From an uncultured Gemmatimonadota bacterium (lineage in GTDB: Bacteria > GCA-2686955): DNA of 64,000 nt. The DNA lies in NCBI GenBank assembly GCA_964490075.1, contig CAZBBK010000002.1:50105-114104 (forward strand), written 5' to 3'. Below the pieces are notes generated by a model. The model saw only the letters and a program-made list of their open reading frames with translations. It did no database searches and was not told where the DNA came from. Positions 47,586 to 51,192 of the stretch are shown here, in pieces. How positions within the stretch are numbered: position 1 is the stretch's first letter; each line of letters starts with the position of its first letter. Both the position numbers and the translations under genes were made by a program.

Positions 47586-48284
47586 TCAAGGCCGCGCCGC
47601 GAAGCGCAGGATGTGATAGACGGCGGCGATCCCGTCGCGCCAGGTGATCTTCTTGCCCTCGACGTAATCGCGGCCGTAGTAGGAGATCGGCACCTCGTAG
47701 ATCCGGCAGCGCAGGCGGGCGATGCGGGCGGTGATCTCGGGCTCGACGCCGAAGCGGTCCGACTCGATCCGAATCCGCTGCAGCACGTCGCTGCGAAACA
47801 CCTTGTAGCAGGTCTCCATGTCGGTGAGGTTCAGATTGGTGGTCATATTCGAGAGCAGGGTCAGCGCCCGATTGGCCACGTAGTGCCAGAACAGGTGGAC
47901 GCGATGCGGGCCGCCGAGGAAGCGCGAGCCGTAGACCGCGTCGGCCTGCCCCTCGAGGATCGGCTGCAGCAGCTTCGGGTAGTCGCGGGGGTCGTACTCG
48001 AGGTCGGCGTCCTGGACGATCACCACCTGCCCGCGCGCCTGGGCGAAGCCGGTGCGCAGCGCGGCCCCCTTGCCGCGGTTGACGCCGTGGCGCAGCACCC
48101 GGTGCCCGGCCGCCTCGAGCTGGTTCAGAATCGCATCGGTGCCGTCGCTGGAGCCGTCGTCGACCAGGATCAGCTCGCGCTCCAGCGGCTCGGGGAGGGG
48201 GGCACGCAGCACGCTCTCGACCAGAGGCTGGAGGGTGCGCACCTCGTTGTAGACCGGGATGACGATCGATACCAGCTTGATCAA
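47586..48284 (-). CDS. GT2 polyprenyl-phosphate sugar synthase (DPM1/GtrB/ArnC-like, soluble form)
   Basis: SIVIPVYNE...VDDGSSDGT...QDADLEYDP (DxD); 232 aa; TTG start with GAGGGAG RBS proposed; 4-nt overlap with the upstream gene. Confidence 0.65.
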
Positions 48285-49492
48285 ACTCTTGCTCCCTCTC
48301 GTTCGTTGGGGCCCGCGCCCACGCCGGCGGCTCCCTGCCCGCGGGAGGCCACGCGCACGTAGGTGGAATAGAAGAGGCGGCGATGCCAGCCGAGATCGCG
48401 GATGCGCATGCCGGGGGGCAGGTCGCGGCTGGCATGCGCATGGTAGTAGATGTTGTGGCTGGAACCCTGCCGCCTCTGGAAGTCGGCGTGGTCGCGGTTC
48501 ACGGAGTAGTAGAGCGGCGCCAGCGAGACGCCGATCCGACTGCCCTTCAGCACCCGCTCCATCAGCTCCGGCAGCGCCGGCCGGCCCTTCAGCACCGGCG
48601 ATTCGGCCACCATGTGCAGCTCGCCGTGGGGTGTGAGGAGTGCATCGAGCCCGCTCAGGATGCGCTCCACGATCTCCAGCCCCAGCGCGCCCCCATAGCC
48701 GTCCCGATTGCGGGTGCGCTCCGCCTCCGGCATCCACACGTAGGGGGGATTGGCGACCACCAGGTCGTAGCGGCCCGCGCCGGCGGCCAGGTCGGCCACC
48801 CGGAAGGTCGGAGCGGAGGGGGCGCCGCTCAGGCGCGCGTTGAGCTCGGCGAAGGCGATCGCCCGGGGATTGATATCGCTGCCCTCGACGCTGCCCGCCC
48901 ACGGCGCCACGGTCAGCGCCTGAACGCCGCAGCCGCAGCAGAGGTCGAGCGCGCGCTCGAAGCGGCGCCCGCCCAGGTGGCGTCGCAGCAGATCGGAGAA
49001 GAGCGCCGAATCGCGGCCCAGGTAGACGAAGTCGGGAATCGAGCGATCGTTGCGATCGGTCACCAGCAGCGCGCCGGAGAGCGGCACGAAGCGCAAGCGC
49101 GAGCGGATCCCGGCTTCGTCCTCGGCGAGGATCTCCAGCTCCAGCAGGCGCTCGAGGGGGGGGCACTCGGGCAGCTGGGCCAGGCTGCGCGACCAGAGCG
49201 CGCGGGGTGCGGCCTCGTTCAGGAAGAAATGGCCCAGCAGGCGGGCTTGCAGCGGATGGTGCAGCCCGAAAAAGTCGCGGTGCAGCCGCGGCGCCACCGA
49301 ATGCTCCATCAGGCGCCGCCCGCCGCCCCCCAGAGCGGCGCGCAGATTCGACCATTCCAGTGGCCACGCGAAAGGGTTCGCCGCCGTCGGCACGCGCTCG
49401 ATGGCACGGTAGCGGGCCCGGCCCAGGGCACGGTGCAGGGCGCCCACCGCCTCGTTCCAGGCGCCGCTGCCGGGCGGCGCTGCGCTGCTCAC
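48281..49492 (-). CDS. class I SAM-dependent methyltransferase with NPPY motif (HemK/PrmC/RsmC-like amino-methyltransferase fold)
   Basis: [12 protein letters not shown]-binding motif I and LVVANPPY motif IV; GTG start inferred from a 4-nt overlap with the carbamoyltransferase stop. Confidence 0.55.
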
Positions 49493-51192
49493 GCCGCCTT
49501 TCCCTCGGGCGCGGTGCACAGGTAAGGGCCGAGCGAGAGGGCATCGAGGTGGCCGAGGGTAAAGGCCCGCACGGCATCGTCGGGACTGCAGACGATCGGC
49601 TCCTCGTGCATGTTGAAACTGGTGTTGACGATGCTCGGGATGCCGGTCTTGCGGTGGTAGTGGTCGACGATGTCGTAGTAGAAGGGATTGGTCTCGCGGC
49701 GCAGGAGCTGCGGGCGGGCGGTGCCGTCCACGTGCACCACGGCCGGTGCCTGCTCGCACATCGAGGGCGTGCAGTCGAAGGTCACGGTCATGAACTCCGC
49801 CGCTCGCTCGGCCCCCTCCAGGCCCAGGTAGCAGCGGCTCGCCTGCTCGATCAGCGTGACCGGCGCGAAGGGCATGAACTCGGTGCGGTGCAGCGCCTTG
49901 TTGAGCCAGTCGTTGACCGAGGGATCGGTCGGCTTGTAGAGAATCGAGCGATTGCCCAGCGCGCGCGGCCCGAACTCCATGCGACCGCCGAAGCGCCCCA
50001 CCACCTTGCCCTCGACCAAGAGCGATGCGATCTCCTCTTCGGGATGGTCGGGGCGGCGCCAGGAGAGCCCGGCGCGCTCCAGCGCCGCCCGCATCTCCGG
50101 CTCCGAGTACTCCGGTCCCCAGTAGACGTCCTTCACCGGCGCCGGGAGCCGCCGCTCGCGCGTGCACCAATGATCGAGCGCCGCGCCCCAGCCGAGGCCC
50201 CCGTCGGCCATGTGGGGAAAGACGAACACCGACTCGACCCCGGGCAGCTGGTGGATCCGCTGGTTCAGCTTCACGTTGGCGAACACGCCGCCGGCCAGTC
50301 CGACGCGCGAGGCACCGGTCTGCTCCACCCAGTGCGCGGCGAAACTCTCCAGGGTTTGCTCGAGGACGACCTGAAAGGCCGCGGCGAAGGGGCCGGGGCC
50401 GCAGCGCTCCAGGATCCGCTTCATGCGTGGGTAGGTCCCGTAGATATGGGGCGCCGAGAAGGTCCGGCCATTGGCCCGCACCAGGTCGCGGCACAGGCCC
50501 AGCGCCTCTTCGTCGGGCGGATCGTAGGCCGCCAGACCGGTCACCTTGCCCTCGTGGCGCCCCGGCTTGTAGCCCAGGGCCTTGGTGGCCGCGCCGTAGA
50601 AGAGCCCGAGCGAGTGCGGCACCCGCACCCGGTGCAGGCATTCCAACTTGGCGCCGCGGCCGCGATAGACCGCCGCGCTGACCCCGCCGCCCTGGCCGTC
50701 GCAGGTCAGCACCAGGCCCTCGTCCCACCCCGAGCCGTACCAGGCGCAGGCGGCATGGGCGCGGTGATGGTCGACTCGCAGCACTTTGTGGTCGGGGATC
50801 CCCTCGGCCTTCAACCAGCGCCGCAGCTGGCCGTGCAGGTCGATGATGTCGATGGTGTTGCGGGGGAATCGCCAGCCGTAGATCGCGGCGGCCGTGAACA
50901 ACCGCTCGCGCAGCGGGATCGCGCCCCCTGTCCAGTAGGGATGGCCGAGCAGATGGCGGTTGTTGGAGCGCAGCTCACGCGGCCAGGGCGGTTTGGCGAC
51001 CACCACCCGGTCCAGCTCGGCGCTTCCGATCCCGGCCTCTTGCAGGAGCCAGCGCACCGCCAGCACCGGCACGCCGCGGTGCCGCTTGCGGCGGCTGAAG
51101 CGCTCCTCGTTGGCGGCCGCCACCAGGTCGGGACCGTCGAAGAGAGCGGCTCCGGCATCGTTGTCCAGCTCCGAGATCCCCAGAATCCACAT
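49489..51192 (-). CDS. NodU/CmcH-family carbamoyltransferase
   Basis: [19 protein letters not shown]-terminus, HHRAHAA motif, C-terminal carbamoyltransferase domain; 567 aa. Confidence 0.8.

Follow-up and report, generated by a model that had tools for sequence, protein, structure and literature searches.

We analyzed a window of 64,000 nucleotides from a contig of an uncultured Gemmatimonadota bacterium (G+C content ~70%), in which a carbamoyltransferase (CT) and a methyltransferase (MT) are encoded side by side in a glycan operon. Enzymes of these two types are neighbors or fused in many unrelated bacteria, and therefore they probably work together; this recurrent linkage and fusion is the strongest evidence supporting their functional coupling. 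Judging from the protein sequences and their families, we tentatively propose that the two enzymes, coupled as one module, would decorate a sugar of the operon's glycan in the cytoplasm, with the carbamoyl nitrogen as the most likely site of methylation. Both enzyme superfamilies are already known, and the enzymology is plausible rather than astonishing. In a limited literature search, we found no description of the ~390-amino-acid (aa) AerE/GenN-like MT family, of its partnership with a TobZ-type CT, of the CT-MT fusion family or of N-methylcarbamoyl on a bacterial glycan.

The pair occupies positions 48281-51192 on the minus strand. A preliminary description of this DNA had noted both genes, their GTGA overlap, the NPPY motif of MT and the glycan-operon setting, all of which were borne out; the operon comprises 13 same-strand genes on the identical public contig.

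Recurrent linkage and fusion of CT and MT

The preliminary description had also regarded the two genes as coupled through their start/stop overlap. At the junction (49489-49492, minus strand), the GTG start of MT overlaps the TGA stop of CT, as read in the sequence: the final codons of CT are GCG GCG TGA, and the G preceding TGA opens the GTG-started open reading frame (ORF) of MT. Because 8 of the 12 junctions in the operon are likewise -1 or -4 overlaps, the GTGA overlap alone says little about a special tie between CT and MT; we rejected it as a sign of coupling and regard such overlaps as the operon's general style. The proposed coupling holds on other grounds, namely recurrent linkage and fusion.

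We surveyed linkage by running tblastn with the window CT against every fetched locus (numbered here with the prefix L), 171 of which hold an MT relative. A CT was found in 28 of these 171 loci, and L172 was added by a further look-up. The linked genes adopt five architectures. In the first, represented by the window operon and by three loci of Gemmatimonadota metagenome-assembled genomes (MAGs; L002-L004) that keep the operon order, CT and MT are adjacent with the GTGA overlap. The orthologues in a marine Gemmatimonadota MAG (L002) are 64% (MT) and 79% (CT) identical to the window proteins, with the same order and the same GTGA junction.

In the second architecture (L005/6 and L010/11), MT lies beside a module of a GDSL/SGNH protein, a 612-aa CT, an ORF of ~113 aa that overlaps the CT end and a Polysacc_deac_1 deacetylase (L005:10001-15613; L010:2935-10592). 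L005 and L010 arrange these genes in different orders, and MT (45-51% identical to the window MT) stays next to the module in both; in L010, the end of an AsnB-like amidotransferase gene lies 5 nt ahead of MT. In the third architecture, found on a contig of 1.68 Mb (ERZ25039533; L172:7886-11184), CT and MT are a pair transcribed divergently, with nucleoside-metabolism genes as neighbors and no glycan genes. Its CT and MT are 45% and 41% identical to the window proteins, while the other linked CTs reach only 26-34%, and thus CT and MT appear to travel as a pair. Apparent frameshifts interrupt both L172 genes; they may stem from errors in long-read assembly or mark pseudogenes.

The fourth architecture is a NeuB/CMP-sugar (nonulosonic acid) cluster, L092, that holds a CT and an MT relative. 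This locus (L092:1908-14005) encodes WbqC, the CT, two SPASM radical-SAM enzymes, a class III aminotransferase, a cytidylyltransferase, a B12-binding radical-SAM enzyme, the MT relative, NeuB and another methyltransferase, and it looks like a heavily tailored sugar pathway.

In the fifth architecture, CT and MT are joined in a single ORF, which we observed in 19 sampled loci. The fusion of Nostoc minutum NIES-26 (L018:7490-11272) belongs to a family of proteins of ~1,250-1,310 aa; the other 18 loci are L020, L027, L028, L031, L032, L034, L037, L054, L055, L064, L088, L106, L108, L115, L119, L121, L132 and L148. Carbam_trans_N and Carbam_trans_C occupy residues 1-560 of the fusion and are followed by a region of ~215 aa, by the MT N-terminal domain and core (profile positions ~47-300) and by an unrelated C-terminus of ~235 aa. 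Neither of the two extra regions matched any Pfam family, even at E<=1. A database search with the Nostoc minutum fusion retrieved 702 proteins at E<=1e-30. The best 120 of them are all full length, 55-93% identical and generically named, and they come from Nostoc, Fischerella, Calothrix, Leptolyngbya, Pseudanabaena and Gammaproteobacteria. Overall, many genera of cyanobacteria carry the fusion, as do some Gammaproteobacteria, Spirochaetes, Bacteroidota and Firmicutes.

Kinases, transporters and sensor kinases surround the fusion genes of Nostoc and Pelosinus, and these neighbors are not conserved. Neither amine-generating nor glycan genes were found near these two fusion loci or near the L172 pair, which favors two consecutive steps on one functional group. 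In a neighbor-joining tree of the MT core, which is rough, carries no support values and was used only for clade separation, the fusion clade lies apart from the window MT clade. The association with CT therefore exists in at least two MT lineages.

Family assignment and active sites of the two enzymes

The window CT (567 aa; 49489-51192, minus strand) is an intact member of the TobZ/NodU/CmcH superfamily of O-carbamoyltransferases, as judged from its sequence. It has the two-domain build of a Kae1-like Carbam_trans_N (E 2e-35) and a YrdC-like Carbam_trans_C (E 2e-57), both Pfam models being covered over their full length. Its best solved relatives are 7xb6 (E 6e-70), TobZ, GdmN and NovN. The motifs HHRAH and DGQ, which we take to be the metal ligands known from TobZ, align with those of the carbamoyltransferase 7xb6. 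The label "NodU-type" given in the preliminary description is apt at the superfamily level only: CT scored 115 bits against the NodU equivalog model (NCBIfam NF041651), for which the cut-off is 1000, and it is not a NodU orthologue.

The MT (403 aa; 48281-49492, minus strand) belongs to an AerE/GenN-like branch of the HemK/MTS superfamily of N-methyltransferases. Its Pfam MTS domain covers residues 166-311 (E 1e-12). Across 12 aligned family members, conservation extends from residue ~5 to ~385; because it begins so early, the GTG start is supported. What the preliminary description took for an N-terminal extension of ~120 aa is in fact a domain of ~165 aa (residues 1-165; 48998-49492, minus strand) that characterizes the family and is shared in part with GenN and AerE. 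It combines helices with a beta-hairpin and is confidently folded in the predicted structure; positions ~106-165 align to the N-terminal domain of GenN, and the whole MT superposes on AerE. By analogy, this domain may serve in substrate recognition, since the corresponding N-terminal region of PrmC makes substrate contacts (PMC9060474). The preliminary description overlooked a conserved C-terminal domain of ~75-90 aa (residues 312-403, the last ~17 of them disordered; 48284-48559, minus strand), which is conserved within the family of 370-410-aa proteins and replaced by a different C-terminal region in the fusion proteins. Even at E<=1, no Pfam family matched the N-terminal 165 aa or the C-terminal 93 aa.

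Three motifs mark the predicted active site. The glycine-rich motif DLCCGCG (residues 183-189; 48926-48946, minus strand), with D183, G187 and G189 invariant, would bind S-adenosylmethionine (SAM). The family-conserved motif Y157-L-G-R-D161-S (49007-49024, minus strand) aligns with V-Y137-I-G-P-D141-S of AerE, and the predicted catalytic motif N248-P-P-Y251 (48740-48751, minus strand) aligns with N231-P-P-F234 of the same enzyme. Among the 12 aligned relatives, N248 and P250 are invariant, P249 is kept in 11, and position 251 is always Y or F. Mutagenesis of AerE showed amide N-methylation to require each of Y137, D141, N231 and F234 (PMC9060474). Our hidden Markov model alignment equates this tetrad with Y157, D161, N248 and Y251 of MT, positions that are conserved in the MT family. 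GenN, a sugar-amine methyltransferase that carries NSPT (PMC9338882), has WY-VDP and NSPT at the corresponding positions. Because MT keeps the AerE tetrad and GenN differs, the comparison hints weakly at an sp2, amide-type nitrogen as the acceptor.

The fold ranking of MT relatives agrees with an N-methyltransferase. AerE ranked first (27.7, with 321 residues aligned), ahead of GenN (24.9), N6AMT1/HemK2 (16.8), PrmC and Mtq2 (15.8 each) and Asc-Orf2 (15.7), a "carbamoyl N-methyltransferase" (9L4Q). All six are N-methyltransferases, and five of the six act on a primary amide nitrogen. MT shares its overall fold, including the N-terminal domain, with the AerE/GenN branch and is clearly apart from generic MTS proteins.

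Against the curated NCBIfam models, MT scored 57 bits for PrmC (cut-off 199), 40 for PrmB (cut-off 230) and 37 for the HemK family (cut-off 115); it carries the NPPY motif but lacks the PrmC-type N-terminal release-factor-binding domain. Close full-length homologues are rare: there are ~15 among 5.8 billion proteins, all from metagenomes, and no close orthologue was present among the matches listed in a scan of one genome per species across 185,579 species. The matches listed in the species-genome and metagenome-contig scans likewise included no closer orthologues and were mostly relatives of 30-40% identity. At E<1e-30, 420 cluster representatives of the family were found among 1.84 billion, most of them 370-410 aa long and covering the whole profile. 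No NCBIfam model reached its cut-off for any MT family member or for the fusion protein. The MT family is thus genuine but unnamed.

Related proteins in Pseudomonas (L016:9674-13280; many loci within L014-L089) form a common clade of ~315-370 aa that carries FGPD[ST]Y and NPPY and has no CT partner. In P. syringae, the MT of this type adjoins a TonB-dependent siderophore-type receptor.

Proposed reaction and competing explanations

TobZ forms carbamoyl-AMP and then O-carbamoylates a hydroxyl. By family membership, CT would similarly convert carbamoyl phosphate and ATP to carbamoyl-AMP and pass the carbamoyl group to a hydroxyl of a sugar. The SAM-dependent MT would then add a methyl group to one of the nitrogens on the same substrate; the likeliest is the primary-amide nitrogen of the O-carbamoyl group just installed, and the product would be an N-methylcarbamate (+57 Da). 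Being soluble and dependent on cytoplasmic cofactors, the two enzymes would act before the glycan is flipped. More speculatively, the decorated sugar may be carried on polyprenyl phosphate and added at the outer face, since a short family 2 glycosyltransferase (GT2) gene overlaps MT and the operon also encodes a PMT_2-like membrane protein.

Several observations favor the carbamoyl nitrogen. The Asn side chain methylated by AerE is an isostere of an O-carbamoyl group (R-O-CO-NH2), and MT retains the AerE tetrad together with NPPY. The CT-MT pair recurs, also as a fusion, with no amine-generating enzyme nearby, and the window operon, by gene calls and Pfam, contains neither an aminotransferase nor a deacetylase; homologues of the L010 deacetylase, AsnB-like and GDSL proteins are absent from the whole window. 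In addition, the structure of an MTS-type enzyme titled carbamoyl N-methyltransferase has been solved (9L4Q).

Other observations weigh against methylation of the carbamoyl nitrogen. By profile E-value, the nearest characterized relative of MT is GenN, which methylates a sugar amine, and MT resembles Asc-Orf2 no further than in the generic MTS core (E 2e-8). The motifs Y.G.D[ST] and NPP[YF] are general across the superfamily, including clades without CT, and do not single out a carbamoyl substrate. The NodB-type deacetylase of the L005/L010 module is a possible source of a free amine. Two closer relatives (L007 and L008) and most of the relatives with ~30-35% identity (L009, L012, L013, L094, L173 and L175) have no CT in the available flank, and because several relatives lack it, the wider MT family evidently has other substrates as well. 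Finally, a limited literature search returned no report of a natural N-methylcarbamoyl sugar, and the only N-methylcarbamoyl group mentioned in a 2026 review of carbamate-bearing carbohydrates belongs to a synthetic analogue (PMC13584161).

It is conceivable, though we would stop short of calling it probable, that the window pair and the fusions of ~1,260 aa represent one widespread N-methylcarbamoylation system acting on hydroxyls of surface glycans or other metabolites. If N-methylcarbamoylation is correct, O-(N-methylcarbamoyl) would be a new surface-glycan decoration with a bearing on antigenicity, on phage and lectin recognition and on the reading of glycan mass spectra. It would also assign a function to hundreds of proteins now labelled "carbamoyltransferase", "methyltransferase" or "putative nodulation protein", including the cyanobacterial fusion. 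The prediction is directly testable because it involves two soluble enzymes, or one fusion, and cheap substrates (carbamoyl phosphate, ATP and SAM).

A Nod-factor-like arrangement, which we regard as unlikely but worth serious attention, would have MT methylate the free amine of an amino sugar, as GenN and NodS do, while CT would independently place a carbamoyl group on one of that sugar's hydroxyls. The homology of MT to GenN and the deacetylase in the L005/L010 module speak for it. However, the window operon offers no deacetylase or aminotransferase and the window no homologue of the L010 deacetylase, the examined fusion loci and the L172 pair stand alone without amine-generating genes, and MT keeps NPPY and the AerE tetrad where GenN has NSPT. 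If this arrangement were true, the pair would be a Nod-factor-like module far more widespread than rhizobia.

We consider it improbable that MT methylates some other amide nitrogen, be it that of a uronamide produced by an AsnB-like amidotransferase or that of an Asn or Gln residue of a peptide or protein (possibly CT or a glycosyltransferase), in which case the link to CT would reflect only a shared pathway. Peptide or protein amides are the substrates of AerE, PrmC, HemK2 and Mtq2 alike, and MT of L010 has an AsnB-like gene immediately upstream, with such a gene also present in L002-L004. Yet the window has no AsnB-like gene, and none was seen among the called or scanned neighbors of L005, L172 and the two fusion loci examined. 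CT is the sole amide-forming enzyme that recurs with MT, and no genes for a precursor peptide or for other components of a pathway to ribosomally made, post-translationally modified peptides (RiPPs) were seen in the operon.

The notion that MT is a housekeeping PrmC, PrmB, PrmA or RsmC enzyme or a DNA N6-adenine methylase that resides in the operon by chance draws on the NPPY motif and the weak matches to the PrmC, PrmB and HemK models, and it is effectively refuted by scores far below the curated cut-offs, the fold ranking, the rarity of the family and its conserved synteny with CT. The clustering of MT with ribosomal or release-factor methyltransferases that would have refuted the preliminary description is not seen.

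Operon setting and comparison with known systems

The operon (41658-56839, minus strand) was delineated from gene calls and Pfam matches on the identical public contig, whose gene calls recovered both CT and MT. Its gene order is GT2, a family 4 glycosyltransferase (GT4), a Methyltransf_23 protein, the PMT_2-like membrane protein, GT4, CT, MT, the short GT2, GT4, a WecA-like initiating transferase, a Wzx-like flippase, GT4 and an MBL-fold protein. The short GT2 (232 aa; 47586-48284, minus strand; Pfam Glycos_transf_2, E 1.5e-36) resembles polyprenyl-phosphate-sugar synthases, and its TTG start overlaps the MT stop (TTGA); its best NCBIfam matches, AglJ, PpgS and ArnC, each fall below the cut-off. 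The membrane protein (439 aa; 52354-53673, minus strand), with a weak match to PMT_2 (GT-C) in the precomputed Pfam annotation of the identical contig, is a possible user of a polyprenyl-phosphate-sugar donor. A second methyltransferase of the operon (321 aa; 53752-54717, minus strand) matches Methyltransf_23/11/12 and is unrelated to MT; its putative target could be an O-methyl sugar.

Relative to window positions 52319-53752, the MAG operon (L002:2555-7168) has two additional genes, one for an AsnB-like amidotransferase (636 aa) and one for a GT4 (412 aa), and hence the two organisms probably make different glycan variants. Between the last operon gene and a TPR gene, the window holds two toxin-antitoxin-like pairs (39858-41389), one of the NTP_transf_2/NTase_sub_bind type (39858-40549) and one of the RHH/PIN type (40740-41389). 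Both are missing from the otherwise syntenic MAG locus (L002:17827-18020) and therefore look like an insertion.

Among characterized systems, PrmC/HemK, PrmB and HemK2 share with MT the NPPY motif and the MTS core, and their substrate is a primary amide nitrogen (protein glutamine N5). They differ in their N- and C-terminal domains, and the MT family is rare, patchy and syntenic with CT.

The preliminary description had named NodS/NodU as the closest known logic. The likeness to NodS/NodU/NodB lies in the combination of an N-methyltransferase and an O-carbamoyltransferase, with or without a deacetylase, on one sugar; CT belongs to the same superfamily as NodU, and the L005/L010 module adds a NodB-type deacetylase. 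NodS, however, belongs to an unrelated class I subfamily and methylates the free amine made by NodB, for which the window lacks a homologue of the L010 deacetylase. The Pfam and NCBIfam matches of MT include no NodS model, and the NodS structure 3ofk, at Foldseek rank 40 (TMq 0.27), is a mere class I fold match. AerE and Asc-Orf2 are closer.

GenN, the gentamicin 3''-N-methyltransferase (PDB 5TYQ, 5U18 and other entries), acts on an aliphatic sugar amine, has no carbamoyltransferase partner and carries NSPT and WY-VDP where MT has NPPY and Y-x-G-x-D-S. AerE methylates the side-chain amide of D-Asn in the proteusin aeronamide (PDB 7RC2-7RC6) and is only ~20% identical to MT. It acts iteratively on a ribosomal peptide within a RiPP cluster, whereas MT sits in a glycan operon beside its partner CT. 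A carbamate N-methylation step, carried out by PsmE and PsmB, is also part of physostigmine biosynthesis. Asc-Orf2 (PDB 9L4Q), whose activity is known from the title of the entry, is a single-domain protein of 214 aa in a maytansinoid pathway, in contrast to the 403-aa MT of the glycan operon. The carbamoyltransferase Asc21b is encoded in the same asc locus, the ansacarbamitocin cluster (PMC9633730).

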